Below, one piece after another: positions 12,501-59,527 of a DNA stretch of 64,000 nucleotides. Under the pieces are notes generated by a model. It saw only the letters and a program-made list of their open reading frames with translations. It did no database searches and was not told where the DNA came from. Position 1 is the stretch's first letter. Every line of letters starts with the position of its first letter. A program made the position numbers and the translations under genes. Source of the stretch: Mustelus asterias (taxonomy: Eukaryota); contig NC_135821.1 in NCBI RefSeq assembly GCF_964213995.1, positions 54,064,001 through 54,128,000 on the forward strand, read 5' to 3'.

Positions 12501-15500
12501 CAGAATACTGAATGTATCCAGGAAACTTTTCTGTATAGAATGGTTAACTATTTCAGTACAGGCAGTCCCCGGGTTACGAACGAGTTCCGTTTTTAAGTCT
12601 GTCTGTAAGTCGAATTTGTATGCAATTCAGAGCAGTTACGTACGGTTCACATCTAGCGTCAATTAGTTAAATGTTTGTCTTAGTATATAGTATATATTTT
12701 ACCCAAAACATCTTAAATATAATACAGTAATAATAGTAATAATTAATGGAAATGACAAAACTTGGATTATTTTTATATTTATATGTGTGTTTGCAGGTAC
12801 AGTATAAAAAACATTAAAGTAATTTCTTAAAGTAAACATCAAGGGAGGCTTGAACAGAGCTTTTATTTTTCTCATTATAAATGGCCTTGTAGCAGCTGAG
12901 GCCGTCGGTAACTATCCGGTAAACTTTGGTGAACCTCTCTGCATTAGGATCTTGCTCCTCTAACTTTGCCATCCCTGCTTCAATGAGACGAAAGGCTTCA
13001 GCTAACTCCTTCGTCAGAAACTTCTTGGGTTCTGGGGTTTCTACATCCCGGACTTCTTCCTCAAATGCTATCATCTGCTGCTCCAGCTCCATAAGGTCCT
13101 CATTGGTCAGTTCTTCGTCATGGGATTCAAGCAAGTCTAAGACATCATCTTCATTGATGTCTAACTGCAGTTGATTATTACCAATATCAACCACAGCCTG
13201 CCTGGCTTCGGCAATGTCCTCAGCTGTGAACCCCTTAAAACCATGTGCGAATTGGGGGCACAATTTGTTCCACACTCCTTTCATGTTGGTTGTCTTCACT
13301 TCCTCCCAAGAATCTGCAATGTTTTTGATGCCATCGTAGATGTCGTAATTCCTCCAGAACTCCTTTAAGGTCATTGCATCATCTTGGGTAGCCCTGACTG
13401 CTTGTGAGAAGGTCCGGCGTAAATAGTAAGCCTTAAAGGAGGCTATGACCCCTTGATCCATTGGTTGAAGTAGTGATGTGGTGTTGGGTGGTAAAAAGAC
13501 GACCTTTACATTGAGGTGCAGGTCATCTAAAATGCTTGGATGTCTGGGGGCATTGTCAAGCACGAGAACTTTGAAAGGAATCTTCTTGGCCAAGCAATAA
13601 CATTCAGCAGCAGGAACAAAATAGTTCAGGAACCATTCTTCGAAGAGAGCTTTTGTTACCCAAGCCTTTGTGTTTGACTTCCAAATGACGGGAAGAGATG
13701 CCTTGATGATTCGGCTAAGTGCCCTCGGATTTAGGGAGCGATACACAAGCATAGGCTTAAGCTTGCAATCTCCGGATGCATTACCACCAGGCAATAACGT
13801 TAGCCTATCCTTGGATGCCTTATGCCCTGGAGCAGTTTTTTCCTCTTTTGAAATGTATGCCCTTTCAGGCATTTTTTTCCCCCAAAATAAGCCAGTCTCG
13901 TCTACATTAAATATTTGCTCAGGCACATAACCTCCCTCCTCAATAATTTTTTCCAACATTTCAGGAAACTCTCTCACAGCACTGACATCGGCACTCGCTG
14001 CTTCACCTGGCGCTTTAACATTGTGTAAATTTACCCTCCCTCTGAAACGCTTGAACCAACCCCTACTCAACAAATTCTTCATCACAAGCATCTTCACTTG
14101 CTGCACGTGCAGCTTTTAAATCACTGAAAAGGCTTTGAGCCTTTTCTTGCACTAAGCCAAGGCTAATAGGAATGTTACGCTGATTTTGATCCTCTAACCA
14201 AATTACCAATAGCCTTTCCATTTCGATAATTAAACCACTGCGCTGCTTAGTGATAATTGTCGCTTTCATCGGGACAGAGCCTTTTACATGCTCCATTATT
14301 CTCCCCTTGTCCTTTATAATTGTCCCGATCGTTGACCGACTGTAGCCTCACGTTTTTTCAACGTTTGTTGGCGTTTCACCACTCTCCGATTGCTTTATTA
14401 TTTCCATTTTCGTTTCGTGACCGTTTTCCTTTTCTTCGATGCATCACCATCACTTGCATCAGATTTACGCTTTGGAGCCATGATTACGAGGGTAAATACA
14501 CGAAAACTTTAAGTCAAAACAACGCACACAACACCGTTTACGCAATCCGACTTAAAATGGCGACGTCGTCGTGGCGCTGTTCTCCCTCGGGCCGACGAAC
14601 CGCTGAAAACGCGCAGTGTTTTGAGCGCCGCACAATGTAGTCCGCCCGTTCGTTAGTACGAACCATTGTATGTCACTCAATTTTTTTAAATAATAGGAAT
14701 AATAGGTCGGTACACAAGTACGGGCGTTCGTAACCCGGGGACTGCCTGTATAAAGTCCTCTGTTCAATTTAATGCTTGGAAATCTATACATCCTTGCAGT
14801 CTTTGAATTGACCAGCTGGGACAAACAAGTCTCGAACAGGTGCCAGAGTGTGGCAACTGGCGGATTTTCACAGTAACTTCATTGCAGTGTTAATGTAAGC
14901 CTACTTGTGACACTAATAAACAAACTTTAAAACTTTAAACTGATGAACCTATTGCTCTTCACACTCCGGAGGTCAAACCAAAGGAGGTCTGCATTTCAGC
15001 AATTGTAAGCATCTCAAGGAATTTTGCCAAAGCCAGATTCCTGGATAACAAACTACCAATCTGCTAAAAAGTAAGACAGCAAATGTGAGTAAGTGGGATG
15101 TTACACAAGTGCAGAATGAGACGTTTCTAATGTAGGAGCTTTACTCTAGATTTGCAAGATATCATACAGGAAGATGTCTCTAAAAATGTTCTCTTACTTG
15201 AGCAAGGACATGGCACTTCCTTGGCAAGCTGGTCGTGGTCGTTTCTTGAAGAAGTCATGAATGGTTTTTGGCTGTGGCAGATGATATGGTAGAGATAAGT
15301 TTGCCTCTGAGAAAAGAAGTGCATAACGTTACTAACAGGGTTACAAGCGGTTCAACAACTGGCATTCCAGGTCAGAACTGTAGTTTTTGTTGCACGGCAG
15401 GGCAATGGTCAGGTCTTTCCCCACCACTTCTCCCCCGCTCCACTTCATGCCCACCCTGCTCTCGCTCTCCAAACTAAAGCTTCTCACCCCGGGTACCATC

Positions 15501-18500
15501 TGAGTAAATTTCTTCACAATGCTCTGTCACTTGGACATCCTTTCTGAATCACAGCATCCAAAAGCTGAGCATAACAATTCAATTGTTACAAAGGGATACA
15601 AAGCATGAAGCATTGACTTCTGGATGACACCACATTGTACATCACGTCAGCCTGAAAAACATCCATTAACCATTACTAGTTTATAACCACCTTTGGATCA
15701 TACCACTATATCCTCAAATACCGTTTTCTTACATCTGCAGTACTCCTCAACCAATGCCTTTTCAATGTGTATACCAAATCAGATGTACTTTTGTCCAAAG
15801 ATTAATTATTCATCAAGTCCTTAAAACGGAGTAGCAGGAAGTAGCAAGAGGAAATATACGTACAGGCAGTCCGTTCTTAGACTTACGACACAATTGGTTC
15901 CCAAAAACCACGCTGTAGCTCAAACATCAAAGTCAAGGACTGCCTGCACAAGTAGAAGTTAATTCAGATGCTTTAAACCTCACCTCGCATCAAGCGCTGA
16001 GTTTCACTGTGAATCTGACGGATTGCCTCCTTACTCTGTTTCGCCGCCTTCCTCTCTGTACGTACCTTTAAAGGACAAAAGCAATAAAAATTATATTAGG
16101 TAGAGAGGTATAGAACCCAAGACATGAGCAAATGAAATATAATATCCAAAAGTAACCATAAAATGTTTATCTTGGGAGTGCTGGTCACCAGAAAGACTGC
16201 ACTGGATGCAGCATAGCTTCAGTGATCCTTTAGCCTCATCCTCAATAACTGGTTTTATCTATACTCAGGCAATAGAGATTCACAATTTCATTTGAATCAC
16301 GAAAAATAGTCCAAAAAGATGTACATAAACATTGAAAAATTTCTCAATACCGATGCAGAACATTGAAATTTGAGCAATCACATCATGCAGCACTACATTT
16401 TGTCAATGACTCAACACGGAAGTCATGGATTGGTTAGTGGCCAGAATGTCTTAATGGTAGTCAAGCATCACCAGAGATCAGAAAATCAAATAATGTCACA
16501 AACCACTGTTATAATGAAAGAAATATCCCTGTATATTTCATAAATCAGCAGTCACTTCCTATACATAGGTGCTCATGATTGAAGGCATGATGACTACTGC
16601 GACTTCAGTAGCTGCCTGATTGAATAACATTGCACTTTTAGTGCATCTGCAATAGTTAGTGTCTGAAAGAAATATTACATTTCAAACCATAACTTATATT
16701 TAAGTTTTTGAGATGTGGCTGGTGACCACAACTTAACATTATCATAGGCTCAAGATTTGTTGGTTAGGCATGTATCCATGTTTTAAAAAGCAGAAGTTGT
16801 AGCACAGAAACAGACCATTTGGCTCAACTGGTCAATGTCAGCATTTATGCTCCACAGAAATTTCTCCTCAAGGGCACAGGAAAAGGATAAGATGACCAAA
16901 TAACTCATTGAACCAGCCTGCTCTGCTGTTCAATACGGTTGTGGCTGACCTTGGGCTTCAACTCCACATTCCTACCCTCTCCCCATATCCTGCGATTCTG
17001 AGAGACTATCCGAGGTTGAAAGGTATTCAATGGTGGAACGTCCACGATGCCTGGGGCAGAGAATTTCAAAGATTCGTCCCCTTTAAGTGAAGTAATTTCT
17101 CATCTCAGCCCGAAACAATTGGCCCCTTATCCTGAGACTGTGTTTTAGATTGCCAGACCAGTGGAAACAATCTCTCAACATCTACCTCATCAAGTCCTTT
17201 CAGAACCTTCTTTGTTTCAATAAGACAGCCTCTCATTTCTTAGGGAGACCCAAACTGAGTTGATTAGGCTCAATAAGGATTTACTGATTTAAATTACAAA
17301 TACAACATTCATATAAAGTTCAGGAACTTTGAGCTAACTGGACAAACTAAATAAGTAATATCAAATGCCTGAATAAGAGTGTATTAAGCAAGGGGCACGA
17401 TAGACTTGCCTTATTGAACTCACTTATAGTTTCCCAAATGTCTCTCTCTTTATATATCTATTTCAATTCTAAAATATGAACCAATTCAAGGTGCAGTAAA
17501 TAGGGATAGCCATAGCCCCCAAGAGACCATAGGTATCTGTCAGAGAAAGAAGTGGTTACAAAGCTTATGGGGCACCATTCTGCATCGAGCAAGGGGAGGA
17601 GGCAGGCACCCACTAACTACCACATGTGAGCATGTCACAACATAATAAATCCCAGTAATAGAATTGCAGCAAATAACCTACAAATAAAACAATCCTTCAA
17701 AAGAGCAGATTGGTAGAAAAAGCATACAGATTGCAGTAAACATAATCTGCTTAGGGAAACTGCTATAAAGTTATTTATAAAAAAACCTAATTAGGTTGTA
17801 GAGTTTTTTTTAAAAAGGAATTTAAGAATAAAAATTTATAAAGCGTTAAAATAGAACGGGAGAAAATGTCAAAAGATTATTTCAGTCACTACTATAATTT
17901 TGAGGAAAGTGGCTATTCCTAAACATGACACGTTGGGCCTGATTTTACCATTTTGCGTCTAAGTGCCGAATCCGGGCATCAAATAGATCCGCGCCTGGAA
18001 TCCTCTTTCCAGCGCGCCCATACGCATTTTGCCAGTTCCGGTCCGATTCACGCTGTGGGCAGGGCTTAGCGCTGGCGGACCGATCGGAGCTCTGAACTGC
18101 GCATGCACAGTTCGAAAAAAATATCGGCGCAGCCAGTCTGTGGCCGATCCCTCCTCTCAGAGTGGACGTGTGGCCATGCCATCCCACAACACCTTCAGGA
18201 TGAAGCGATTCCTTGCTAAGATGATGAGGCAGAACCAGCCGATTCCACAGTGGATCCGCATGAAAACCGGCTACAAGATCAGTACAACTCCAAGAGGAGA
18301 CACTGGAGAAGGACCAAGCTGGGCCTGTAAAGGGATACACCATCACTGGTACACTACCAGCCACAGATTACTCTTCCCTGCAGGGGCAAGAGAGCGGGAG
18401 AGATGGCAGTGGCTGGTAGTGTACCAGTGATGGTGTATCCCTTTACAGGCCCAGCTTGGTCCTTCTCCAGTGTCTCCTCTTGTACTTATACTGATCTTGT

Positions 18501-21500
18501 AGCCGGTTTTCATGCAGATCCACTGTGGAATCGGCCGGTTCTGCTTCATCTTCTTAGTGAGGAATCGCTTCATCCTGAAGGTTTTGTGGGATGGCATGGC
18601 CGCACGTCCACTCCGGGAACAGGGATCGGCCGCTTTATAAATTTTTATTCTTAAATTCCTTTTTAAAAAAAACTCTACAACCTAATTAGGTTTTTTTATA
18701 AATAACTTTATAGCAGTTTCCCTAAGCAGATTATGTTTACTGCAATCTGTATGCTTGGCAGCGGACCCCCCCCCCACCAGAGGATGACCTGCCCCCCCCC
18801 CACCCACCCAAACCAGAGGATGACCTGGGTCAGAGAGCCGTTGCAGGCTCTGACCCCGCTCTTCGGAAGCTGCAGCGACGACTTCAGACTTTTATTTTTC
18901 AGGTCGCTTACAGCGCGGATGCGGAACAGACCAGAGGACGGTAAAGTGGGATTTGGCGGTAGAGTTGGGTGCGCGGTTCATTAAGTCGATTTAAATGCAT
19001 GCAAATGCATTCAAATCGTCAGGCCGCCCGATTCGGGAGCGGGCCGGACCCGCGCCCGAATCGGGTGTCAGTAAAGCCGCGACCTGCTCGGAATTGGGTG
19101 CAGATCGCGGTATAGGCCCAATGCCCAACTTTACCGTGATTTCGCGTCCGAAAACAGAACCTTGTGTGCAATAAACAGTGACCTATCCTTAGCCAATTAC
19201 CTTTTTCTCTTCTATTTGCATCAACGATTCCTCGCAGTCATAATCCTGGAGATTTTTAGCAGATGGAACCAGTTTGGTACTCTAAAATCAGAAATAAACA
19301 ACTGGGAAAACGCTCAGCAACTGTACAAGAAACCAAACTCCAACACAATTAAATTTACAAATGCCTAAATCCTGCACTGAAATAGTTTCGAATTAAAAGA
19401 ACAAAAAGTAATAATGATCGGGTGAACTATTTGCTCAATCATGTGAGATATTTTATTCCCTATACTATATCGAATAGATGGTAAGAAATCATCAATCCAG
19501 ATAGAATCCTCTCTACTCTTGATCTCCATCCAATGTGTCCTGCTAGGAAGTGCACGCAAATGGACACTGACAAGGGCAAGATCGGCATCATGAATAAGTG
19601 ATTTTTAACATTTAATTTCAATCAGAGTGCAGATGGTAATTGTTGTTCACGGACTAAAATAAATGTCTAGAAAAGAGTTTGGCAGCAACAACTTCTATTT
19701 ATGTAGCACCTTTAATATAAAGCTTCCCAAGGCTCTTCACAGAAACATTATAAAACAAAGTATTACACGGTGTCACAAAATAAAAGGAGATATGTCAGAT
19801 GAGCAAAGGCTTGGGAAAAAGGAGGTAGGTAATGTGGAGTTCTTGACGAGAAAAGCAAGATAGAGAGATGTCTGGAGTGTTTCCAGAGTTTGGAGCTGAG
19901 TCAACTGAAGGGCTGGCCACCAACAATGAAGCGATTGAAATGGGGAATCCACAAGAGGCTGGAATTAGGGAAGCGCAGATACCACAAGAGGGTTGTGGGG
20001 TTGGAGGAGAATACAGAGGAAGAGGGAGCCGAGGCCATAGAAGGATTTGAAAACAAGGATGAATATTTTAAAATAAGATGTTGCTTGACTGGGAATCAAT
20101 GGAGGTCAATGTGCACAGTAGTGATAAGGGAACAGCAGCTGGCAAGCAGGTCTAAAATTATACAACTAAGAATTTCTTGTACCATGAATAGCTGAAATTG
20201 TGTCATGAGTGATTCCATGCAGCCAAAACCTAGTTCTGGTAACTGTATTGCATTAATGAATAACCTTCACAAATGATTTGATGACGACTGAGTTTATAAC
20301 AGGTTGGATTAACCCCACCATCTTAAATTTATGTTTGACAGATGTACAAAATCTATTCCTGCACAATCAGATAAACCATTGTAACCTGGGATTCACATTA
20401 CTCATACAGTTCTCACGAGCTCGAATTTTACCCTCCTCACCGGCAGTCTTTTAGTCTGGGGGAAGTATTTGCGTGAAGAGAGAGAACGTGAAATTGAGGG
20501 GATAGGATCTCCCTAGGCTACACAGCAATTTTACTCTGCGGTGGGCAAGGCCATGGATGGGAAGCCTGCCCTTGCTCCAACTGAGACCCTTAAAATAAGG
20601 GCTGTTTCCTGGCCAACCTCAATCTTTAGGCTGGCAGGAAAATTTAATCTTTGTGCAAGCAGGCTGGAAAGAATCAAAGTTGCATCTCAGGTGACGGTGG
20701 TTGGGGGTTCCTCCATGAGAAGCCCCCCATTCTTTCCTTTCCCTCCCAAGGCTTGACCTCTGGCACCTCACCCTCCCCCCCGCTCCATGACCCTCATCCA
20801 CCCGCCCCGCCCCCCCCTCCCTCCGACCACAATACCCCAATTCTTCTCTGCCCTGGCTCCTGTATACACATCTTATCCTGTGACACCAGCCAGGATGTTG
20901 GATTTATGTCACATTATCAGTAACCCCCACAGCTTGCCTCCTGGACTTGCAGAATCTCACTAGCTGTTCTGTCTGGAGACAATACACATCTCTTTAACCT
21001 GTGTTTAATGTTCCCTCCACCCACATTGTCTGTACCTTTAAGACCTGGCTGGCTTTCGGGATTCGCATTCTAATCAGTATTCTGTAACTTGATGTTGTGT
21101 CGCTGTGCACTGTTTAAGAGCACATTTCCACTCCATCTGACGAAGGAGCAGCGCTCTGAAAGCTTATGGTATTTGCTACCAAATAAACCTGTTGGACTTT
21201 AACCTGGTGTTGAGAGACTTCTTACTGGGCTCCAGCACTTAGGCAGGTTGGTCGCTCTTCTGTCCGCTGCAGCGTGGGCAAGCACATATACAAACAAGGA
21301 AGTTGCAAAAGGCAGGACTTTATTGTACTCAAAAGGCAGATTATAGATGGTAAAATCCAGGCTGCTTCTGCCCATGGTACTGCACCCCAACAACAGTTAA
21401 CCCCCTTCTTCACATAAAATTGGCAAAATATTTCAATTTGCGTCGTGAAATACAATTGAAAAAGATGGAAATTGCACTCACTTTGGATTGCTTTGCTTTC

Positions 21501-42034: not shown

Positions 42035-42471
42035 CTAATTTTGACAGAGACATTGCTCCAAAGCTGACATTCCATACAGGTTTGCTTTCTCCTCGCCATT
42101 ATTCAGCAATATAATGTCTTTACATGGTTTGCTGTTCTTTGCCAGTTCAGCTAAAACACACTGGAAGGCAGCGATAATGTCAAACTCAACCGTCATGGGT
42201 GAAGCCTTATTTAGCAAGTCGAAAATGTCACTCAACCATTCTGATTCAATTACACTTTGTGGCAGCCACGGCAGTAAGGGTACACAACTACCGAAAGCCT
42301 GCATTCCCAGAAACCAAAGCTCTGAGATTTGATCCCAAGCTTCGTGGTATCTCTCGGTCACCACAATCTGCGTTCGGTCAACAACCTCCTCCAGCTGAGT
42401 TGTATGTGCTTTGGATAGAAAGTGAATCGCCCCTCGGAAAAAGCCCCTGGATACTGTGGTTCCTTGTAACA
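42035..42471 (-). CDS. NCDN: NCDN last coding exon (VLQGTT...ALEQCLCQN*)
   Basis: Within ORF 42035..42496; ctttag acceptor; TAG stop. Confidence 0.94.
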
Positions 42472-45400
42472 CTAAAGAAAAAAGCATTACTTTCAATATA
42501 TAACTTGGAAGACAAATTCAACCATATCTTCATTACAAATTCATGCCAAATCGGAGAACAACTTCTTGGCCTCCAAAATAGAGGATATGCATTTGTCTGC
42601 CTTAACATCCTCTTCACATTTCCCATTCACGGTCTTTCCTGAACTTCTCAAATCTCTTACAAAGGCAGCCCAGACTCCAAACCCTCTAGCTTCATTTAAT
42701 CCGTCTCCATGAAACCCAACTCCTTCAGTGATGTCAGTGACACCACTTTATTCATCATTCTGCTCCCGTCTGTCCTAGTATATCTCTGACAAAGACTTCT
42801 TCTGCCCTTGCAGAATGACCTCTGCTATCCCCAACATTGTATGCAAATTGATATCAAGCCACTTATTCTTTTCTCCAGCGTTATACTTTTACAGGTGCAC
42901 AGCACTATTTATTCTATAAGCTTCTCTCCACAAACTACTCAAAACTGTATTAGTTTTACATTGTATGCAGTGCTTGGAGATCGCGATGATGATTAGGGTT
43001 GGAGGAATGGTTGGGTTAAACAATTCGCTTTTTGTACCTGGTGTGCCAGCAAGTATGCGACTCATCATCAGACCCAGAGTGGTGAAGTTAGCAGCAAGAA
43101 TCAAGTGACGTTGGCTATAAAGCAATGACTGTAGGGATTCCATTAACAAACTAAGTAAAGATGAGAAACATTCTTCCTGCCTGCAGCAACAGATAAAAAG
43201 GGCAAGGGTAAGCAAAACTTAAAACAGTGCAGGAACCTCCCCCCACCCTTAATAAATATCAGGTCTCACCAAGAATCATTGTGAAACCCATTCAACAACT
43301 TAATTATTTTAAATACCATTTTCGGTCCGGAGAGAGAAATCAATAAATTATCGCCAGCCTGTAATCAGCAGTTCATTTGTGAAAATAGATGTTGAATATT
43401 AGATACGGGAAAAAGATGCCTGACCATTTAGTAAATTGAAACACTGAGTAAATAGTTTTAATAGTGAATTTCAAAACTGTCAATATTCAGCTTTCTGATA
43501 GCTCAGCAGATTAACACAGCGAGTCGTCAAATCATACCACCTGGGAAGGACTCAGGATTGATCCATCAACCCAGGCAGGAATCTGCCAGCCTCACCTGGT
43601 CAAACCAATACATGACTCCAGTCCTACACAAATTGAATCTTAATGCTCATTGATCAAATAGGATAGACAAAAGAACTTGCAGGGGATGATGGGCCTCATG
43701 TGTAATGCCCCACAACTGAATTATCTGCTAGCAGTCACTGGTAAAACTTATGCATGCGCCACAATAATTTGAACACCGTACTATGTCCCAGCAAAAAGTC
43801 ATGCCTTCTGGAGAAGTGGAAAGGATATATTGAAGGGGAATTAAAGATACATATTCATAAACCGTGTTTGTACTTTCGATGAACAGTATCACAGGCAGAG
43901 CATTAGTGGTTGGAGTAATTAAAACAAAATGGTGCCACGGGTGGCATAGTGGTTAGCACTACTGTCTCTCAGCGCCAGGGACCCAGGTTCAATTTCAGCC
44001 TTGGGTTACTGTCTGTGTGAAGTTTGCATTTCTCCCTGTGTCTGCGTGGGTTTCTTCCAGGTGCTCCAGTTTCCTCCCACAGTCCAAAGATGTGCGGGTT
44101 CGGTTGATTAGCCATGCTAAACTGACCCTAGTGTCGGGGGATTAGCAGGATAAATATGTGGGGTTTTGGGAATAGGGCCTGGGTGGGATTGTGGTTGGTA
44201 CCGACTCGATGGGCCAAATGGCCTCCTTCTGTACTGTAGGGATTCTATGATTCACTATCCTGACAAGTCCGTCTCTTGCATTGTCAAAGCGGTTGATTTT
44301 CCTGGCTTGTTTCTGCCCTGACACTGGACAAGAAGAACATACTCAAAGTACATGTGCTTGTCCAGCCATTGGAGCATTGCTATCGCCCATCCTGGAATCT
44401 GGCCCAGAACCTGGGCCTTTGGCCGGATGAAATGGGAAAAATATAAATGTAGCTACAGCACTGGGCCTCTGCATGGAGTTTTCCAGCTGCTGATGGAGTT
44501 TAATAAGCTCATTTTGATCAACTCCAGCCCAGACTGAAAAACAACAATTTGCCGCAGCTTATGTTTTGTATATAAATTGCAATTACTTGTTGCATTGAAG
44601 GGTATAGCACTGAGCTCTGCTAAACTTTTATTTCCTAACCATTGTTTATTTTTTCTCCAGACTCATTCACTAAGCTTCTGCCTTCCATTTCAATTTCTGA
44701 TTTTGTCTCACCCAAATTCACCTTTAGCTTCCCAAGCCCCTGCCAACAATTATACACTAAATATTGTAAACCTCCTGTCTGGGGGTGGGGTACTGAGTAC
44801 CTGATCAACGCAGGCTCTGTTACCACAAGGTTTAGAAAAATTCCACAGGCCGTTCGAAGACTCATCTCTGCATCATCCGGCAAAATCAGTGCATTTTGAG
44901 AAGAACTGAAGACCTCCCACTGTTGTGTGAAATAACGAAGAAGCAGAACATGAAACCCATGTGAAATTAAGATCCTCCGAGGGATGTCCTCAGCCGAAAG
45001 GTGACAGAATCCAGGTAACAGGAACCTATACGTGGAGACATACCATTAGTAAAACACTGCATGTGCACTCAAATGGCGAGACACAGCTTTCTATCTATAA
45101 TCTTCAACATAATTTTAGCCATAACTATCTTAAAAGTTAAAAATTGAGTTAGTGATCTTTCATAGTTAACGGGTATAGTTGCACTACTGTTTCATCATTT
45201 AGTTTCAAACCTCATTAATCTGCCAGCTAAAGCATTTCACATGAACATTAGTAATAATCATGATGCTGAAAAGCCAAAAAGGAGGTAACTTCTCAAACTG
45301 AACTCTAAATTTAGCAACAGACGGAATGGCTATAATTTTTCAGCAACAAATCAGATCACATGTTCAAAACCCTATCTCCTGAGCACAGAAAGTCTGAAGT

Positions 45401-48400
45401 GTGGCATGGAAAACACCTAGGAAGTGTTCATTGATTCAGCCAGTGATAATTTAACAGTTTGTCTGTGAGGAGTGAGGTCACTTTAGCAAGGTGTAGCTGT
45501 GATAATTGTGGCAAATTATACATTGGTGCACCCCATCCCCCCCCAAAAAAAAATTTGAGATTTTCTTTGGCCACTGAATGATAGAAGTAGAACACCAGCC
45601 GAAGCGAAGCTCTGACCCATCAGGTTGAGAGGTTAATATTACAATGCACAATATTAGTGATCATTAAATGGACTCCATTTAATGCTGTATCATATTTTCA
45701 TTCTTACCTCAAGGCGTCTTTAGACCAGGTTGTTGCCTCGGAGCTCTCAGCTAGCGATAGTCCTTTCACTTGATTGTCTAGGTCATCAGATTTTATTGGA
45801 CATTCAAACAACACCTGAGCATAACGAATCAGAAAAGGCAGTACATCACAGATTTCCTGTCTGAGTGCATAAGTCTCTTCAGCCATCCACGCGCCCAGAA
45901 TCCGGACTGAAGCAAATAGGAATGGACTCCACAGCTGTTCCTCTGTAACCTACGGTATAGGGAAGAGTAAACAAGTGTGAACTGCATTTGCTTTTTAAAA
46001 TATATAAAAGAATTTCACAGCAAAAATGTGTACTGCAAGAGATTGAAACTAAGCTTCGACGCCATAAGTCTTGGAGTCAGAGAGGATAACAGCATAGAAA
46101 CAGGCCCTTCGGCCGAACTTGTCCATGCTGCCCCTTTGTTTTTAACCACTAAGCTAGTCCCAATTGCCCTCATTTGGCCCATATTCCTCGATAGCCATCT
46201 TACCCATGTAACTGTCTAAATGCTTTTTAAAAGACAAAATTGTACCCGCCTCTACTACTACCTCTGGCAGCTTGTTCCACACACTCACCACCCTCTGAAA
46301 TAATTGCCCCTCTGGACCCTTTTGTATCTCTCCTCTCGTATCTTAAACCTATGCCCCCCTAATTTTGGACTCCCCTACCTTTGGGAAAAGATGTTGACCA
46401 TCTAGCTGATCTATGCCCCTCATTATTTTACAGACCTCAATAAGATCACCCCTCAGCCTCCTACACGCCAGAGAAAAAAGTCCCAGTCTATCCAGCCTCT
46501 CCTTATAACTCAAACCATCAAGTCCCGGTAGCATCCTAGCAATTTTTTTCTGCACTCTTTCTAGTTTAATAATATTCTTTCTATAATAGGGTGATCAGAA
46601 CTGTACACACAGTATTCCAAACGTGGCCTTACCAATGTCTTGTACAACTTCAACAAGACGTCCCAACTCTTGTATTCAATGTTCTGACCAATGAAACCAA
46701 GCATGCCAAATGCCTTCTTCACCACTCAGATTGCAATAAGCAAGTGAGGTCTGCACCACTGGAGAGGAATTGTTAAAACTGCACCCAGTGTTTCTCAGAA
46801 GAATATATTGACTCCCACAGGATTAAACATCACTCATTCTGTCATCCTAAAAATATCTTGTAGAACAAGGAAGTAAGACTGAGCTTGGAAAATAGGGCTT
46901 AAACATTTACAACATTTGTAAACCTTCAACCACTGCAACCTTCATACTCATCTGATAGAAATTCAGTTTCCCCTTTGGCACTTGCTGTCTACTTTTCTTG
47001 GTTACTTTCTTGAGATCAATTTAAAAGTTTGCCTGCAATGATGGCCAATTGGACTGTACCAAGTGTACTGCACACTGTTCCAACTGAATCTGTGGTTTGA
47101 TAATTTCTGAACTCTCTCAAGCAGTTATGGGCGGCACGGTAGTACAGTGGTTAGCGCTGCTGCTTCACAGCTCCAGGGTCCCGGGTTCGATTCCCGGCTC
47201 GGGTCACTGTCTGTGTGGAGTTTGCACATTCTCCTCGTGTCTGCGTGGGTTTCCTCCGGGTGCTCCGGTTTCCTCCCACAGTCCAAAGATGTGCGGGTTA
47301 GGTTGATTGGCCAGGTTAAAAATTGCCCCTTAGAGTCCTGAGATGCGTAGGTTAGAGGGATTAGCGGGTAAAATATGTGGGGGTAGGGCATGGGTGGGAT
47401 TGTGGTCGGTGCAGACTCGATGGGCCGAATGGCCTCCTTCTGCACTGTAGGGTTTCTATGATTTCTATGAGTTATCAAATATAATAGTACAGCTGGGAAC
47501 CAACTCCCTCGCCCCACCCCAATCTGGCCGAGATCGAGAATTTACGATCTGTTGTGAAAACATAACAGCAGTGTGTGACAGCCCGATAGTTTATCATTTC
47601 TTACAACTTCAAACAACAGCAGTAAGAATTTCCACCATACAAAATATACTTTCAGAGGTGAGACAGGCACTGTTTCAAGTCCACATCCACTAGTGACCAT
47701 AACACAAAATATTGAACGTGGGAAATGCATTAATTGCACTGCATTCATGAAATGGTTAAGGGCCTGCATTACACTAATCAAATATAAAAGAGAACTCTGA
47801 ACTACGTTATTCTGACATAAATATATGATTACATTCACCCCACTGGGGTGGCACAGTAGCTAGCACTGCTGCTTCACAACGTCAGGGCTCCGGGTTCAAT
47901 TCCCGGCTTGGGTCACTGTCTGTGCAGTTTGCGCGTTCTTCCCGTGTCTGCGTGGGTTTCCTCCGGGTGATCCAGTTTCCTCCCACATTCTGAAAGACGC
48001 GCTGGTTAGGTGCATTGACCCAGACAGGCACCGGACTACGGCGACTAGGCTAATTTCACAGTAATTTCATTGCAGTGTTCGTGTAACCCTTACTTGTAAC
48101 TAATAAATCAACTTTACTTGACTTCAACCCACCATCCCAAGCTTCCCACTGTGAACAATATTAAATGGGCTAGATCAAAGGCAAAAACAATAACCTGAAC
48201 ATTCGTGAATGTTTGAATGTGAGGATTCAAAACCAAAGCAACATAATCTGCACTTTTGACAAATGTGGTTAGAAGAAAATACAAATTACAAATACAGTAA
48301 ATTATTCCAATGATAGTCACATTTCCATACTTCACCTGCTTAAAATAGCCAATGACTGCTCCAAAAGCCTCCACCATTATCTGTACTAATTGGCTACTTT

Positions 48401-51400
48401 CAGCTTCTGTTAGACAGACTTTATCCCCAAGTACACAAACCATCATCCCAAACTCAATGATACTGTAACATGCCGTGATGACATCTGGTTTAGAGTTAGC
48501 TGCATCCAGGTCTGGGTCCTCCAAACAAATCCGAACTTCCACACAGGCCAGATTCACCATCAGTGCCAGGAATTTACTTCTTGTTTCGGTATTTTCTGCC
48601 AGTATCCAGTCTGAACCATAGACAGTCAATAATAAGCCGGCAAGTTTCAGTGCTGGGTCCCGTTGTGAGACACTCAGCTTGCTGCTGAGAATGCTGAAGA
48701 GACCAGTGTGAAAGTTCTTTAAGCACCCAGTGAGAGATGGGTCCTCAGTTAGGATAGGTACGGCAGGCAGAAAATGCTGCAAAACGTTACACAGGTTAAA
48801 TTTCCGGTTATCTTCTTCTGTAGCAAACTGTTCACTGAGCTTGATCAGTACCTTCAAAAGGTCGAGCTTACAAGTTTTCCAACACTTGTTTTCCATTGCA
48901 TTCAGGAGAGTGACAAGAAGACACAGTGCCTGCTCGTGGCCATGACTTTGGTTTAGATAAGCCTGACATAATGCTGACACTGTTCCTTGAGTTACTAGAT
49001 GTTTCTGACCCTGAGGATGGGCAGATATCGCATGGAGACATTGGTAACAGTCATCGATCATTGGTGTGAAGGTGGCAACATCTGCTCCAGAGTCTACTTC
49101 TGAACTAATAATTTCATTAAAAATCGGGATTTTGTTGAGGATTTGTGGGTGAGTAACCAATTCTGGATTTGTGGAAAAACATGCAAGCAGAGTAATGCCG
49201 AGAGCTCGGAAAATTTGGCTGGGACAGCCGTGTGGTGACTCCTTGGTAATAAGAAGTCGGTTTGGGAAAGAGAATCCAATTGCATCAAATATCCGTCGCC
49301 GGGTTCCCGCATCAATTTCACCTGCCTTCACCACCTTGGTCACCTAAAAGAAACACATTTAATTCAATGCATTGTCAAACACTGAATGATGCTGCACAAA
49401 ACTGTCAGGAACAGTCTTTCAATTGTCTAATCAGTTCAATGGTAGTGATTTTTTTTCAGTTTTTTTCCCCCAAATGGAATACAAATCAAAAGGTTATTTC
49501 TTTATTCTTTCATGGGGTGGATGGGTGTCTCTGGCAAGGCTAGCATTTGTTGCCCTTGAGTTGAGGGGCTTTATCAGCCATTTCACAGGGCAGTTAAAAT
49601 TCAACCACATTGCTGTGGGTCTGGAGTAACATGTGGGCCAGAACAGGCAAGGGGACTCGTGAACTAGATGGGTTTTTATGACAATCAATGATACCTGTCA
49701 TGGTCACAATCATTGATTATAGCTTTATATTCCAGATTTATTAATTGAATTTAAATTCCATAGATGCCATGTTGGAGCATTAACCTGGATCTCTGGATTA
49801 TTAGTCCAGTGACATTAATTTGCACTATCGTTTCCTCATAAGAAATAGGAGCAAGTGTAGGCCAATCAGCCCATCAGACCTTTTCTGCTACTTCAGAACA
49901 TAGCCGATCTGATTGTCGCCTTAACTCCACTTTCCTGCTCAAGTTAACCCTCGAGTCCTTCACCAATTTTTTTTCTAACTCAGCCTCAAACAGATTCAAT
50001 GACTCAGTCTCCACTGCCTGCTGGAAAGTTAATTCCAAACATTAGTGATCCTCAGAAAAAAAATCCTCATCTTCATCTTAAATTGGGACCAACGTAATTG
50101 GGCATCTACTCTGTCGAACCACCTCAGAACCATATGTTTCAACCAGATCCATCTCATTTGTTCTGAACGCCAATGAATATAAACCTTTCCACCATTTCAA
50201 CCTTTCCCCAGAAAGAAAACCAACCTCTTCACCCCAGGAATCAGCCAAGTGAGCTTTCTCTGAATCATTTCCAACACATGTATATCCCTCTAAAGTAAGC
50301 AGAGCAAAAACATTCACCCTCTTTTAAGCGCAGTCTCGCCAATAATCTGTACATTTGTATCAAACCTTCCCTACTTTTATACTCCATCCCCATTGCAATA
50401 AAAGCCAATATTCTATTTGCCTTCCTAATTACTTGCTATAGCTGCATGCTAACCTTTTGTGCATCATGTACTTATGATTGCTCTACACTGTAGAATCCTG
50501 CAGTCCCTCTGTTTGCAAACTCTTTTTATGCTCTTCACCACTTGCTTTCCCACTGAAATTCGTATTGCAGCCAAATTTGTTGATGATACAATCTGCCTCA
50601 TGTCAATATAGTTGAGGTCCCAGTACAAATTCTGATTTGCCTTTCCTGGATCACTCGTCCAGACCTCTGAATTGCGAGCCTGTCAACATGACCACGATAA
50701 ATGCAGTATTCCTAAATAACCTGGCTTCATAATTTAACCTTTTAAATCCCTGTTTTATTCTAGTGAACCTGCATTGACCTCCTCCAAGGCTAACATGCCT
50801 CAGAAAGGGTGTGTCGAAAATTGCGTGCACTCCTGATGGGATCTGACCAACCCTCTGTACAAATGCAGAGTAACTCTCCCCACTTGGGCCTCTTGAAAGA
50901 AAGGACAAAAATCCATTAACCTCAAATTATTTCCATACTTGTGCATTAACCTTCAGTGATTTGTGCACATACAACCAAATCCCTTTGATCATCCATAGTT
51001 ACTGGTTTCTCATCAAGAAAATATTCAGATTTGTTCATGCTGGATCCAAAGTGGATGTCCTCACACTTCACACAGCTACAGATTTGCTTAGAACTTAATC
51101 TGTCCATGTCCCTTCTTGCTCCCATGTATACAATTTACTGTGCTCTTTAATATAGTGTCTTCTGCAAACATGGTACTCTCCATTCCTTCATCCATGTCAA
51201 TGATTGTTATGGTAAAAGGTGGAGACTCTAATTAGAATTTTCAATTTCCATACATTCTGACGACTACTATCCCACCAATTGTCATTCAGTGTCACAAAGT
51301 TCTCTCCAATTCTGCTTGCTTTTAGTTTTGTGAATAATCTCTTGCGGGTAAGGTACTATAGAAATGCAAGTCCCTGACTGGTTATACAAACTCATCCACT

Positions 51401-52498
51401 TAAAACTCAAATTAAAATTATTTTTATTCACTTGTGTGCTCACCAATGTTGTTGGAGAACTCAATACCTTTTTTGTCACAACCATCTGCTCAACTCAAAT
51501 CTCAGGAGGAACATTTTGCATTGTAATTTTCTCCCTCACACAGCTACTTACATGTCTTCACCAAATAAATCTGCCAGATAAGCACAAGCCCTTGTTTTAT
51601 TGAAGCACTGTTTCACATAGGGAGTAGTGGAAATCTAGAGCTCTCTTCCCTAACAGCTGTTGAGGCCAAATCAATTTAAAATTTCAAAACAGAATCACAG
51701 AATTGTTATGGTGCTGGAGGTGGTCATTTGGCCCATTGTAACTGCATCAACTCTCCAAATGAGCATCATGACTTAGTCAAAACGGAAGTGGAGAGACTCT
51801 TGTTAGTCAAGGGTTTTAAGGATTATAGAACCAAGGGAGGTAGATAAGAGTTACAATACAGATCAAGCATGGACTAAATAAGCAACAGGGTGAACCCGAT
51901 GACTGAATGTTCTGCTCCTTTTCCTTTGTTCCTACTTTATATTGGTGATCAACACCAAGTATAAAACACTCAGAAATGTATAACTACTAAAGATGAAGAT
52001 TTTCAGCTTTAATCGTGATGGCTTAAAGTTGACTCAACAGCGTCTAAAGTTACTGCAGCGGTCAGTAATGTTCATTTAAAATGGAAGCTTTTATTTTTAA
52101 AAAGCCATATCCCAATTTCAGTTATTCTTCCCTCAGCCAGGATTGCACTAAATATTATTCAAGTAAATTGAAAATAAGGGAAATTAACTGCTTAATGAAG
52201 TGGCAAGTCACAGCAGGCAAAATAAATGCTTAAATTTAATAAGTTGAAATATAAATTTATTTCAATACACTGGGAAACTTGGGTGTAAAATTCTCAGATT
52301 GTTACAGTTAGTTTGAACAGAGAAAGAAAAACAGTATATTTGTATTAGACTGGAATACTAAAAGATTCTTACCAGTAAAAGAGCTGCAAACTGTTCACTA
52401 TCATTTTTTGCATCTTGCAGAACCTGGAGACATTGTTCGAGTGCTTTGCTCCTTGCCCCATCTTCAGTCCCACATGGATTTTCTGAATTTGATGCCAT
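42035..52498 (-). CDS. NCDN: Neurochondrin (norbin), complete CDS in 6 coding exons
   Basis: AKNDSEQFAALLLVTK..AG.IDA.TRRRIFDA.GF.FPNRLL, SQRDPALKLA, LACVEVR, FASVRILGAW.AEET, DALRFLLPG.CHL, ELWFLGMQAF are neurochondrin signatures; all GT-AG junctions in phase. Confidence 0.97.
43038..43180 (-). CDS. NCDN: NCDN exon (QEECFSSLL...LAANFTTLGLMMSRILAGTP)
   Basis: Phase 2 to 1. Confidence 0.92.
43932..44252 (+). mobile_element. HE1-like V-SINE
   Basis: Matches consensus. Confidence 0.88.
44801..45025 (-). CDS. NCDN: NCDN exon (FLLPGFCHLSAED...TEPALIR)
   Basis: Phase 2 to 2. Confidence 0.92.
45708..45949 (-). CDS. NCDN: NCDN exon (VTEEQLWSPFLFASVRILGAW...KDALR)
   Basis: Phase 0 to 2; gtaaga donor. 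Confidence 0.93.
46083..46725 (-). mobile_element. CR1 LINE 3' fragment
   Basis: RMLPGLDGLSYKERLDRLGLFSL..RRLRGDLIEV. Confidence 0.85.
47129..47469 (+). mobile_element. Full-length tRNA-derived V-SINE (HE1-like), TSD AGTTAT
   Basis: A/B-box head, V domain GTGGGTTTCCTCCGGGTGCTCCGGTTTCCTCCCACA, (TTCTATGA)n tail. Confidence 0.92.
47845..48110 (+). mobile_element. V-SINE, alternative tail
   Basis: V domain plus the same alternative tail as the 30590-31377 copies. Confidence 0.8.
48336..49343 (-). CDS. NCDN: NCDN large exon (VTKVVKAG...GYFKQ)
   Basis: ORF 48114..49343; CAG|gtgaag donor; 1008 nt. Confidence 0.95.
49838..50500 (-). mobile_element. Old CR1 3' fragment
   Basis: cataagaaataggagc tail and degraded similarity to the 31899 copy. 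Confidence 0.6.
52373..52498 (-). CDS. NCDN: NCDN first conserved coding exon (MASNSE...FAALLL); acceptor at 52512
   Basis: ttgcag acceptor, gtaaga donor. Confidence 0.92.
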
Positions 52499-52759
52499 TA
52501 GTGCAATCCCAACTGCAATAAAACATTTAACAAATTCTGAGCAGATTTCAATAAAATGGTGAGTTTCAGCAGAAAATGATTCAGGTTTTGCAAATGGAAA
52601 TAGATTTTCACAGCTTGACAAAAACATTTAGAAATACTTGAGTAAGCACAAGAATGACAATTTCACCCAACACCAACCCTTTAGCGAAAGCCAAATACTG
52701 TGGATGCTTTCATATCTGGGTAAGACAATAAGTGATACATAACCAAAACATCAATTGAG

Positions 52760-55420: not shown

Positions 55421-56510
55421 CGAAGCAGAAAGGAAAGGGGCGGCTGATTTGATTGTGAGGATGATGGTGCGGGGAGAGGATTCGATGCGGTTGTAACAGG
55501 GAACCTTCAGCCCCCCCCCCAAAACCTGAGCCACCTCTCAAATGGCCAAGTGCGGCTTCAGAAAGGCCTCCAGGGAAGCGGCACCAGGGTCGCCCTGGGC
55601 GGAGAGTCAGCTTGAACCAGGCTGAAGCCTCACCTGAAGCAAATCATAGACCACAGCGGCACCTTTACTGGGAGCTCTCCCGTTCGGTGGGGGGGGACAG
55701 CGCGGCCGCCGGCGACCAAATTAAAGAAGCAGCAAAACCAGAGTCACAAGAGCAGCGACTCACCCTGCACCGCAACAGCAGCATCCGGGGTATGATCAAC
55801 TCTGACCCCCAAAGCAGCATCCGGGGTATGGTGAACTCTGACCATCCCCCCAAGCAGCATCAGCCAATCAGCACCACCGACCTATCAGAGCTCGACCCAT
55901 CCCCCCAGCAACCGTCGCTAGGCGGCGGGCGGACCAATAGGGAGCGAGGGGCCCCGCGGAGAGTCACGTGGGGCTGAGCCCGCGGGGTCTGTCCTGTTCA
56001 GCCTGACATTCGCAGCGCAGCTCCCGCTATGTGCGCACCGCCCCGCCGGAGATGACTGGATCTTCACCACCGGCCCATCTGCAACCGCGAGTATCGGTGT
56101 TTTAAATCCCTGAACATTGGAAAGTCCGCCTCGCCTCCTGTCCAAAGGTTTTGTTTTGAATTGGTTGCAATAATTATTCACCCTCCCGGGCGGCCCGGAA
56201 CCAGTGCACTCCGCTCCCCGGTTTCTCCGGATCCTGTTGGTGGGCGGACACATTTCCCCCTTATGGGGGGTTTCAGGCGCCAAGGACAACCTGCTCCCCG
56301 GCTGATGTGTTGGTGGGTATTTTCCTGACCCGCTGTCTGGTCGGGTATTGAGCGGCGTCACTGATACATTTATTTATAAATTATAATCGGGGTTTACTGG
56401 CGGGGCGGGGGGGGGGGGGGGGGGGATCAGGGAGCGGAAATGACACGGAGCTTGTGTTTGAGATGCTGGAGGCGCTGGCAGTTGGAATCGTGAATCGCGG
56501 GGTGGGGAGG
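55420..56510. promoter_or_regulatory. CpG island: NCDN promoter and first exon (donor AGG|gtgagt at 55763, minus strand), probably bidirectional
   Basis: CCAAT boxes (~55864, ~55934), GC box, E-box GTCACGTG (~55963), ETS-type CGGAAAT (~56435), strong minus-strand donor. Confidence 0.7.
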
Positions 56511-57740
56511 AGGAGGAGAGAGAGAGGATAGACGGACAGAGAGGGGGGGAGAGGATAGAGAGAGGGAGAGGGGATAGACAGAGAAAGAGGATAGACAGAA
56601 AGAGGATAGACAGAAAGAGGATAGACAGAAAGAGGATAGACAGAAAGAGGATAGACAGAAAGAGGGGATAGACAGAAAGAGGGGATAGACAGGGAGAGGG
56701 GATGGACAGAAAGAGGATAGACAGAAAGAGGGGATAGACAGGGAGAGAGGATAGATAGAGAGAGGATAGACAGAGGGGGAGAGAGAGGATAGACAGAGGG
56801 GGGGGAAGAGAGGATAGACAGAGAGAGGGGATAGACAGAGAGGGGATAGACAGGATCGACAGAGAGAGGGGATAGACAGAGAGAGGGGAGAAAGGATAGA
56901 CAGAGAGAGAGGATAGACAGAGAGGGGGGGAGAGAGGATAGACAGAGAGAGAGGGGAGAGAGGATAGACAGAGAGGGAAGAGGATAGACAGAGAGAGGGG
57001 AGAGAGGATAGACAGAGAGAGGGGAGAGAGGATAGACAGAGAGAGGGGAGAGAGGATAGACAGAGAGAGGGGAGAGAGGATAGACAGAGAGAGGGGAGAG
57101 AGGATAGACAGAGAGAGGGGAGAGAGGATAGACAGAGAGAGGGGAGAGAGGATAGACAGAGAGAGGGGAGAGAGGATAGACAGAGAGAGGGGAGAGAGGA
57201 TAGACAGAGAGAGGGGAGAGAGGATAGACAGAGAGAGGGGAGAGAGGATAGACAGAGAGAGGGGAGAGAGGATAGACAGAGAGAGGGGGAGAGAGGATAG
57301 ACAGAGTGAGGATAGACAGGGAAAGAGGAGAGAGGATAGACAGGGAGAGAGGATAGACAGGGAGAGAGGATAGACAGGGAGGGTGGATAGACAGGGAGGG
57401 TGGATAGACAGGGAGAGAGGGGGGAGAGAGGATAGACAAAGAGAGAGGGGGGAGAGAGGATAGATAGAGAGGGGAGGGAGCTTAGATCGATAGGGAGAGA
57501 GGATAGATCGATAAGAAGAGGGGGGAGAGAGTGAAGGGGGAGAGGATACGAGAGAAGGCGAGAGAGGGGATAGGATAAGAGGTAGGGATGAGAACATAAA
57601 TGAGAGGGAGATAAAGAGGAAGGAAGGAATATTAGGTAGTAGGAGAGAGGGGAATAGAGAGGAAAGGATGCGAGAGAGGGATAGCTGACTAGAGATAGAA
57701 AGGGGAAGGGATAATTGATAGAGGGTGAGAGACAAAGTGA
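56505..57740 (+). repeat. Polypurine minisatellite; core 24-mer GGATAGACAGAGAGAGGGGAGAGA and 14-mer GAGGATAGACAGAA
   Basis: Directly visible; about a dozen near-perfect 24-mers at ~56980-57290 with degenerate flanks. Confidence 0.97.
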
Positions 57741-59527
57741 ATCATGGGACGGAGAGATCGAGGGGGAACAGGGATAAGTCGGGAGTAAGGAATATAGAGG
57801 TTGGGGGGGCGAGAGGATAGCAACAACCAGGTGACCGAGGAAGGTAAACCGGAGACAAGAGTGAGGGAGAGATCTGGACAGAAAGAGACTCAGAGAGCCG
57901 GTGACTGCAGGATCGGCATCGATGGGGGCAATAAACAACAGTGGTGTGTGCCAGAGTGTAGGCTTGACAGCCGGATATTGTTCCGGCGACACTCATCCTG
58001 ATCAGGCGTCTGTGGAGCCCGAGCGGCAGGTGCCCGATGCGTTTTATTTGTTTTCATATTCATTGCCCAGCAATGTTTTTCTCACGCATTCCAGCAGCAG
58101 CAGGGAGGTGGTCCGGATTTCACTGGCGAGTACATTAACCCGCTGTTCCTCAGTCTAGATTCACCATATGGTCGATGAATATTCTGGAAGTTGGTAGCAG
58201 CCGAATAGCACTTGGAGTTGGGAAATCTCCTACTCTGATCATTTACCCGACATTGTACAAGTGATGTCATATCGGTTCAGTCGATTGTAGTTTTAAGTCT
58301 TAAACAGTGATGAGCAATAAGCGTTAGACAGTTGTGCTGCTAGGTATGATAGCATCTGTGAGATCACTAGAATGGTCAAAGATTTTTTACAATATTTGCA
58401 ATAACATGCTTTTCATGTTGGAGATTTAAAAAAACTTGCATTTATATAGTGCTTTTCATTTCCATATGATATCCAAACGTGCTTTTAACGCAGTTGCTAA
58501 TTTGCACACAAACGGCAGTGCTGGTTCAGAGGTAAATGCTGACCAGCACAAAGAACTGCCATCTTCTTTGCGTGATGTTGTACGTTGAACAGAAGAATCT
58601 TGGTGTAGGGTCTTGCCAAATGGTTGGCATTTCTGCCGATGCAGTGTTCCTTCAATCCTGGACTACAGAATCAGGTTAAACCAGTTACTAATACTCTGGA
58701 ATGGAAATGAATCTGCAACTTCCTGGCTGAAGTGAGACTGCGACAACTGAGGCAAGCTGACATGAGGGAATTAGTTAACTCTTTCAGGGTTTCAGAATCA
58801 TGTTTGCAATAGTTTTAACTTCTTTAATCAAATCTGCATAAAATTGTGTAAAATTTCTATTTGGATTTAACAGTCGGTGGCTAAAATAGATTTTGGAATG
58901 GGAAATGTTTTAGTGTTTATAGTTTAGTCGATGTATGGAAAATCTGAAGGAATGTTTTTTCACGTAGCTATGTTGTTTCATCAATTAATCATTGTAAAAT
59001 GAATTATCCATATGGAATTTATTGGGTAACTAACAATTCATTGTAGATGTCTTTAGTTAATGCTGTTGGATAGACTATTCTGCAAATGATTATGAACTGA
59101 TGAGCATTTTATGTAGTAATAGTTAACTTAAAAACTTGACCATGCACAGCATTTTCAAAGGTTTCCAGAGATGCACAATACTGACTGTTTAAAATTAATT
59201 TTTAATGACATTATTGTAGGTCACCTCTTTAAAAAGTAAACTAGTGATGTGAATAGTTTCCAAGGGCAAGGTTCATTGCTCCAGAGAAAGTCTTTGGTAG
59301 TTATGCTTGGCATTTAAATGCAAGTACAGTGTGCATATTTAGGAAATAATGAACATTATATTTGACTTGTACAATTAGTAAATTGCATTGGGGTGTTTAT
59401 TATCTAAATGCCATATGAGTCCAAGATGCTGCATTATCAAAATGTTCAACCCTTGCTTGAATTTACAGAAAGTTGGAACTCAAAGTTTCTTGTATCATTT
59501 TTGGTTTCCTTCAGACTTTCACTAAGA

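Follow-up and report, generated by a model that had tools for sequence, protein, structure and literature searches.

The stretch analysed here, called the window throughout, comprises 64,000 nucleotides of the genome of the shark Mustelus asterias (assembly GCF_964213995.1, contig NC_135821.1, positions 54,064,001 to 54,128,000 of the forward strand). It contains a long inverted repeat with arms of 236 nt (18142–18377 and 18396–18631) that are 91% complementary and match the Pfam family Ribosomal_L39 with an E-value of 3e-11, the match covering the first 35 codons. The fold-back of the ribosomal protein gene RPL39 which a preliminary description had reported from the letters of this stretch is thus real, and both flanks are, as stated there, GC-rich against AT-rich surroundings. 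The same description had proposed that a non-autonomous DNA transposon captured an RPL39 copy, mirrored it and spread it. We find that the window copy is a damaged member of a non-autonomous PIF/Harbinger family of 1.2–1.5 kb, with ends homologous to those of transposase-bearing Harbinger elements and with spliced cargo, so that this proposal is borne out. It did not extend to the OPA1, RPS19 and other cargo found in this clan.

The junction at which the two RPL39 copies turn into each other is common to the family. Searched for as a 21-nt pattern it has 757 and 866 exact occurrences in the two orientations, that is 1,623 genome-wide, and the control has 0. This number is a lower bound because the copies lie about 2.5% from their consensus. 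With this common turn and with distinct 3-bp target duplications at their sites, the copies are indeed mirrored and dispersed. A genome search with the arm, as advised in the preliminary description, gave 1,217 first-look candidates in the shark's own genome (40 scored); the left flank gave 3,203, and the left rejoining point of the fold-back occurs exactly 1,396 times. RPL39 sequence is present in 25 of the 29 further loci for which the left flank was the sole selection criterion; of the remaining four, one is truncated, one is cut off by a masked stretch or an assembly gap, and two have other cargo. The median length is 1,290 bp for hairpin elements, 1,213 bp for OPA1 elements and 1,879 bp for elements with a single RPL39 arm. 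Under three further organism labels of one study the element, arms and loop reach summed contig depths of hundreds to thousands versus 0–4 in the distal unique flank, these depths being contig-based and no contig being shown to bridge the turn. Organism D (run X10) was left out as a host, because its data are consistent with trace contamination: a divergent exon 2 of its own stands at depth 17, and pieces nearly identical to the element stand at about 10.

The assignment to a superfamily is based on 103 complete distinct elements (50 hairpin, 7 partial, 20 single-arm and 26 OPA1 elements). Both ends of these elements are 16-bp terminal inverted repeats (TIRs). An exact 3-bp target duplication flanks 72 of the 103 and a duplication with one mismatch another 25; shuffling gave a mean of 6.4 and a maximum of 15 in 2,000, and a 4-bp duplication was found in none of the 103. 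The target preference at the 72 sites is palindromic and symmetric over about 11 bp with peaks of 0.60–0.79, and an extended preference of 9–15 bp has been described for PIF/Harbinger elements (PMC2836001). The left 16-mer of the window copy opens 27 of the 50 hairpin elements as well as 23 of the 26 OPA1 elements, and a G-rich variant of it opens a further 15 of the 50 hairpin elements. The DDE_Tnp_4 transposase profile has 10,689 candidates in the genome, of which 150 were scored, and many of the top 30 loci have an end homologous to that of the family. In L198 (5.8 kb), L199 and L200 both ends are homologous around DDE_Tnp_4, with 73–83% identity to a hairpin copy and 78–90% to a single-arm copy; L197 has an open transposase frame of 408 amino acids (DDE_Tnp_4, E-value 6e-41) and more distant ends. 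What the preliminary description had left to be defined is thus settled: the TIRs have 16 bp, the target duplication has 3 bp and the superfamily is PIF/Harbinger.

Young Harbinger copies that are 97–99% alike, with an open transposase of about 410 amino acids, were observed on small contigs (L158–L161, L178, L197 and L203); they are possibly recently active or collapsed duplicates. Among cargo-free relatives a short unit is expanded to a long minisatellite in L204, L208, L212, L224 and L228, and L227 is an independent cargo-free fold-back. MITEs (miniature inverted-repeat transposable elements) are typically smaller than 1.2–1.5 kb, so the label MITE-like, which the flanks had been given, did not stand for a family exceeding this size. 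Nor do the hairpin, OPA1 and single-arm elements resemble Tourist-like MITEs, which measure a few hundred bp and have no coding cargo; most non-Pack elements are below 500 bp (PMC8903248).

The RPL39 parent gene lies on contig C14, where exon 1 ends at 8582829, exon 2 spans 8584567–8584670 and exon 3 starts at 8589993 behind an acceptor. The cargo joins the three exons without the introns of 1.7 and 5.3 kb and starts 20 nt before the end of exon 1, runs through exon 2 and continues in exon 3 up to about 73 nt of the 3′ untranslated region (UTR), which forms the hairpin loop. As had been noticed before, the cargo has no poly(A), stopping about 70 nt short of the parent's polyadenylation signal, and neither end shows an evident target duplication belonging to the cargo itself. 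Of the hallmarks of a processed pseudogene it therefore has the absence of introns and lacks the poly(A) and the flanking duplication; the missing poly(A) may reflect later loss in the fold-back. The deletion at codon 36 is common to the family: one base at the exon 2/3 join is lost in 76 of 76 sampled arms, and with four substitutions added, both arms differ from the parent by five fixed changes. The arms are frameshifted and cannot encode RPL39.

A 28-nt pattern with the junction base, which selects for the exact join and so gives no frequency, is found at 34 places in the genome, namely the parent, 31 members of a single-arm family (1.9 kb, older ends), L082 and L075. The exon 2/3 join is exact in all 33 non-parent places selected in this way, and an intact frame of 51 codons, which the pattern favours, is present in 24 of the 33 (single-arm family, L061–L094). 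One change at codon 17 is common to 25 of the 33 selected copies; these could be expressible retrogenes. L075 has the turn of the hairpins and keeps the junction base and is thus an intermediate. L082 (C13:19539651) is a free RPL39 retrocopy with 89% identity to the parent and a longer 3′ UTR; it was rejected as the donor since this identity and the lack of element flanks make it too old. One fixed substitution is common to the hairpins and the single-arm family (27 of 28), and because the latter also has the 5′ junction of the hairpins, a single capture of RPL39 is likely from these comparisons. As in Pack-TYPE elements, a host fragment with an identifiable parent lies in a non-autonomous element with terminal repeats and was transposed after capture; it was not copied with its introns, since all four introns spanned by the RPL39 and OPA1 cargo are cleanly absent. 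The family behaves as a Pack-TIR yet is outside the working definition of the animal survey, which excludes intronless copies (PMC8277862).

A second cargo is a fragment of OPA1 (PDB match, E-value 3.5e-32), in which three exons of the parent on contig C3 are joined exactly at both joins. It is folded back with arms of 78 bp, and its turn junction has 278 exact occurrences. The OPA1 copies meet at the centre by their 5′ ends and the RPL39 copies by their 3′ ends, so that the two fold-backs are independent. For the OPA1 loci (L056, L058, L128–L157; parent C3:37323130–37325353) we observed the same loop orientation in 26 of 26, unlike the RPL39 loop. A third cargo is an RPS19 coding fragment (L287:1506–1619), identified by Pfam alone (E-value 7e-7), with 892 candidates in the genome. 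Some RPS19 elements (L288–L307) keep a transposase half, and others have a 700-bp piece without identification. Repeated capture of mRNA-derived DNA by the clan is likely, as judged from these cargo sequences. Two other pieces were seen: one of 350 bp, whose ends are mirrored and which collapses to a small hairpin (L279:2080–2480, L250, L256, L268, L280; 68 candidates for the L279 cargo), and one of 560 bp, non-coding, which sits at the junction of RPL39 and has mirrored ends of 56 bp (L245, L252, L253, L264). For the other cargo, none of 54 frames matched Pfam, none of three matched PDB, and Rfam gave no match in eight loci.

In intact copies the inverted repeat runs past the complementary DNA (cDNA) into the minisatellite of the element, which in cargo-free relatives has one direction only. 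Because the mirrored part includes this element sequence, the mirroring likely took place at the DNA level. The centre is variable. Among 58 copies the loop points one way in 19 and the other way in 32 and is missing in seven; both arms are full in only 26, and over half have lost all or part of an arm. The two arms of a copy diverge by 4.7% compared with 5.0% between copies (n = 26), with 0.31 versus 0.15 shared private changes per pair. Homogenisation of the arms after insertion thus finds little support. The turn is present in L075, where the base is not lost, so the subsequent changes would have passed to both arms by copying in a master lineage.

Thirty loci were picked by the left rejoining point: 19 have RPL39, one a collapsed remnant, one OPA1, four the 560-bp non-coding piece, two a small hairpin of other sequence and one the RPS19 piece, and two are interrupted. 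Twenty more loci, 19 of them chosen to avoid the listed RPL39 and OPA1 junctions and one being the extension of the RPS19 locus, gave nine RPL39 remnants, three OPA1 copies, three members of the small-hairpin family, three with an AT-rich piece and two unclassified. The opening 6 nt of the RPL39 piece survive on each side in two further cargo families. In L277 (1127–1352) the RPL39 5′ part and adjoining DNA form a new fold-back, arranged head-to-head, whose 111-bp arms are 97% identical. The long palindrome thus likely stays fragile, so that loops come to point the other way, arms collapse and further sequence (OPA1 cDNA, non-coding DNA, a 126-bp flank copy) is filled in.

The window copy itself is considerably altered (Table 1). 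After the left subterminal region about 140–380 bp are deleted in this copy specifically, and the mirrored G-rich minisatellite is gone. The right TIR is deleted as well, leaving only the left one. The duplicated flank sequence mentioned in the preliminary description is a 25-mer at 18767 and 18803. A second, perfect inverted repeat of 126 bp, absent from that description, is formed by an insertion at the edge of the palindrome and the host flank, and such a reversed flank insertion is present in no other locus examined. As the insertion is 100% identical to its source and the element has drifted by about 5–9%, the data suggest that a templated repair took place at the edge of the palindrome much later; an assembly error is a possible alternative.

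Table 1. Parts of the RPL39 fold-back element in the window
Feature	Position	Strand	Remark
Host flank, template of the 126-bp insertion	17720..17845	+	
3-bp stretch directly 5′ of the left TIR	17932..17934	+	
Left TIR of the Harbinger element, 16 bp	17935..17950	+	same 16-mer in sister copies
Left subterminal region	17935..18122	+	91–93% to intact copies, ~83% to transposase-bearing element
Mirrored element-derived sequence and filler, 5′ junction of the cargo	18128..18158	+	
Left arm, spliced RPL39, frameshifted	18159..18366	+	last 20 nt of exon 1 (start codon 18176), exon 2 18179–18282, exon 3 minus one base at the join; parent stop 18328–18330, then 36 nt of 3′ UTR
Hairpin loop, further RPL39 3′ UTR in antisense and family-wide turn junction	18367..18406	-	
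Right arm, second spliced RPL39 copy, frameshift as in left arm	18407..18614	-	
Copy-specific insertion of 126 bp, apparently templated	18631..18756	-	reverse complement of 17720–17845; ~5 bp of element replaced
C-rich minisatellite of the element with duplicated 25-mer	18757..18840	+	
Right subterminal region	18840..19155	+	85–89% to intact copies, 73–75% to transposase-bearing elements
Probable remnant (2 of 3 bases) of the target duplication on the right, with right half of the preferred target; return to host flank	19162..19167	+	from the target profile of the family

No gene enclosing the window copy was recognised among the 150 of 339 unmasked frames that were scanned, and an intronic position was not borne out. 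The only recognised host gene is neurochondrin on the minus strand (42038–52627, six Pfam-matching exons), 23 kb from the copy. Elsewhere in the window there is a Pogo/Tigger-like transposase remnant on the minus strand at 12817–14347 (DDE_1, E-value 1e-38 in an open frame of 433 amino acids, and HTH_Tnp_Tc5); at 56377–57992 long repetitive open frames in several phases with a weak Cornifin match are probably a tandem repeat.

Taking these findings together, we consider it probable that a non-autonomous PIF/Harbinger element with a mirrored, intron-free RPL39 reached at least 1,623 sites by one cDNA capture, fold-back synthesis and spread in trans, without benefit to the host. The RPL39 cDNA would have been pasted beside the minisatellite of the element, and a break in the 3′ UTR would have removed its poly(A) end. 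The free end may then have snapped back, copied cDNA and minisatellite and rejoined the left end. In the master lineage the arms would later have been equalised, which fixed the frameshift and three further changes in both, before a related transposase presumably amplified the element in trans; breakage and refilling at the fragile centre would have recurred.

Several observations weigh against parts of this reading. We found no autonomous element with ends more similar to the hairpin family than about 83% (5′) or about 75% (3′). The Myb-like gene of the candidate autonomous partner is under the Pfam cut-off (Myb_DNA-bind_5: L199, E-value 9e-4, 19.6 bits, cut-off 21.7; L198, E-value 0.01; none in L197). 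A snap-back stem in the parent 3′ UTR exists and closes at the turn, yet it does not exceed chance expectation: z is −0.96, with 32 of 200 shuffles equally good, and for the wider stretch z is −1.93, with 8 of 200. A tree of the element ends, for which 51 of 129 rows were subsampled at random, strongly supports a division between single-arm, cargo-free and autonomous rows on the one side and young hairpin and OPA1 rows on the other; 30 of its 48 inner branches are open, RPL39 cargo sits on two end types separated by other cargo, and the order of captures and events is therefore uncertain. Mirroring is not obligatory, since none of 20 loci with RPS19 cargo shows it. Finally, the cDNA may have entered by any of three routes: retroposition, a template switch to a retrocopy, or direct RNA-templated repair.

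Whether the hairpins have a function has to be considered separately. It seems unlikely to us that they are kept or tolerated since they are transcribed and diced to small RNAs, or edited, and so tune RPL39 and OPA1, probably in the germline. The window copy is predicted to fold with −444 kcal/mol, 91% of its bases being paired with perfect runs of 19, 23, 27 and 74 bp, and by this prediction it has the long near-perfect duplex matching an expressed gene that is expected of a hairpin source of endogenous small interfering RNAs (endo-siRNAs). In the two arms 58 of 216 and 78 of 216 21-mers are identical to the parent mRNA. The mirrored frameshifted family also appears far commoner (1,623 exact turns) than the single-arm family (31 of 34 pattern places), counts that are not strictly comparable; two unrelated mRNAs are both mirrored, and a parent gene can become a target of small RNAs directed at Pack elements (PMC8903248). 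RNA runs held 0.06–0.09 of the words and one run guessed to be RNA held 0.20, which is evidence neither way on expression. However, transposition alone explains the copy number, over half of the sampled copies have lost arm sequence, and with a divergence within copies close to that between copies the arms are not maintained as a pair. This favours the absence of a selected role, and we regard a selfish spread as probable. A bolder proposal, which we rate no higher than the functional one, sees the fold-back Harbinger as an mRNA trap and hairpin factory: breaks would be patched from abundant germline mRNAs (RPL39, OPA1, RPS19), the patches re-mirrored and amplified to thousands of sites, and read-through transcripts would yield small RNAs regulating the parents.

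It is very improbable that genomic RPL39 DNA was captured without an RNA step and lost its introns later by microhomology-guided deletion. Intron 2 (C14:8584671) and exon 3 (8589993) of the parent do open with the same six bases, the hairpin consensus has the seventh base of the intron, and the base loss lies exactly at this join. Yet the single-arm family and L075 have the exact spliced join with the base of the exon (31 of 33 at that position), and with the exon 1/2 join and both OPA1 joins exact as well, four exact intron losses by chance deletion are unlikely. That the carrier is a retroelement, Helitron or Crypton with incidental terminal repeats has next to no probability: the cargo is RNA-derived, and retroposition mediated by long terminal repeats (LTRs) is documented in fish (PMC5131818), but the TIRs, the 3-bp duplications and the end identity of 73–90% to DDE_Tnp_4 elements refute such a carrier; the shark element moreover has neither poly(A) tail nor long direct repeats and is inserted equally in both orientations (757 and 866). 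Equally negligible is a one-off retrocopy in a common repeat that was inverted locally, which the preliminary description had named as its refuting case; the window locus alone has the inverted 126-bp flank, the deletion on the left and the loss of the right end, but the 1,623 exact turn junctions and the RPL39 sequence in 25 of 29 flank-selected loci refute it.

No paper describing this family turned up in the open-access literature, a search which did not include Repbase and Dfam, so that the family may have an entry there. For animals, cut-and-paste transposons with captured genes in multiple copies are reported to be rare: a survey of 100 genomes has four such families (PMC8277862). In the present case a single Harbinger clan of a vertebrate carries spliced, mirrored copies of two genes or more, the sites number hundreds to thousands, and intermediates have survived. 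The clan offers a natural series for the entry of mRNA-derived DNA into DNA transposons without the hallmarks of long interspersed elements (LINEs), and for the formation, flipping and refilling of palindromes in the germline. If transcribed, more than 1,600 copies would be potential sources of double-stranded RNA against a ribosomal protein gene, recognisable by five diagnostic differences. In this lineage the copies will confound RPL39 read mapping, quantitative PCR and pseudogene counts.

Among known systems, the psiPPM1K pseudogene-derived locus and the mouse oocyte hairpin endo-siRNA loci are reportedly single loci with demonstrated small RNAs. The likeness lies in an inverted-repeat mRNA copy that could feed Dicer; the shark copies number more than 1,600, are mobile and are known from DNA alone. 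Closer in their transposition are Harbinger3_DR and Harbinger3N_DR of zebrafish and Ping and mPing of rice, which like this family have terminal repeats of about 15 bp, a 3-bp duplication and an extended target preference, and whose autonomous members encode a DDE transposase of about 400 amino acids and a second, Myb-like gene (PMC2836001, PMC9710019). Unlike Harbinger3N_DR and mPing, the shark elements carry cargo derived from host mRNA and a long internal palindrome. Animal Pack-TIRs and plant Pack-PIFs are likewise non-autonomous terminal-repeat elements with pieces of host genes (PMC8277862, PMC8903248). The animal survey has 370 cases in 100 genomes, four of them multicopy, which transpose after capture by template switching; it discarded intronless captures by design, and its available text does not mention Harbinger, PIF or shark (PMC8277862). 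In the available main text on Pack-PIFs the words intron, cDNA and spliced are absent (PMC8903248). LTR-mediated retroposition in fish is a different route (PMC5131818). Turmoil-1 of C. elegans is a Harbinger with host coding fragments (rsp-2, cpg-3) in inverted arms, but with the rsp-2 intron kept, as in DNA capture, with the fragments in 760-bp terminal repeats around the transposase, and with nine copies (PMC2572040), whereas the shark cargo is spliced, central and in a tight hairpin at more than 1,600 copies. Bat Helitrons also took up the copy of a ribosomal protein mRNA (RPLP0 in HelibatN424) and amplified it; they differ as rolling-circle carriers whose inserts have poly(A) and own duplications, the hallmarks of LINE-1, with 118 copies over four cases, six of them for RPLP0, and no mirroring is mentioned in the available text (PMC4224331). 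Both animal precedents, Turmoil-1 and the bat Helitron retrogenes, are thus at far lower copy number than the mirrored RPL39 of the shark.

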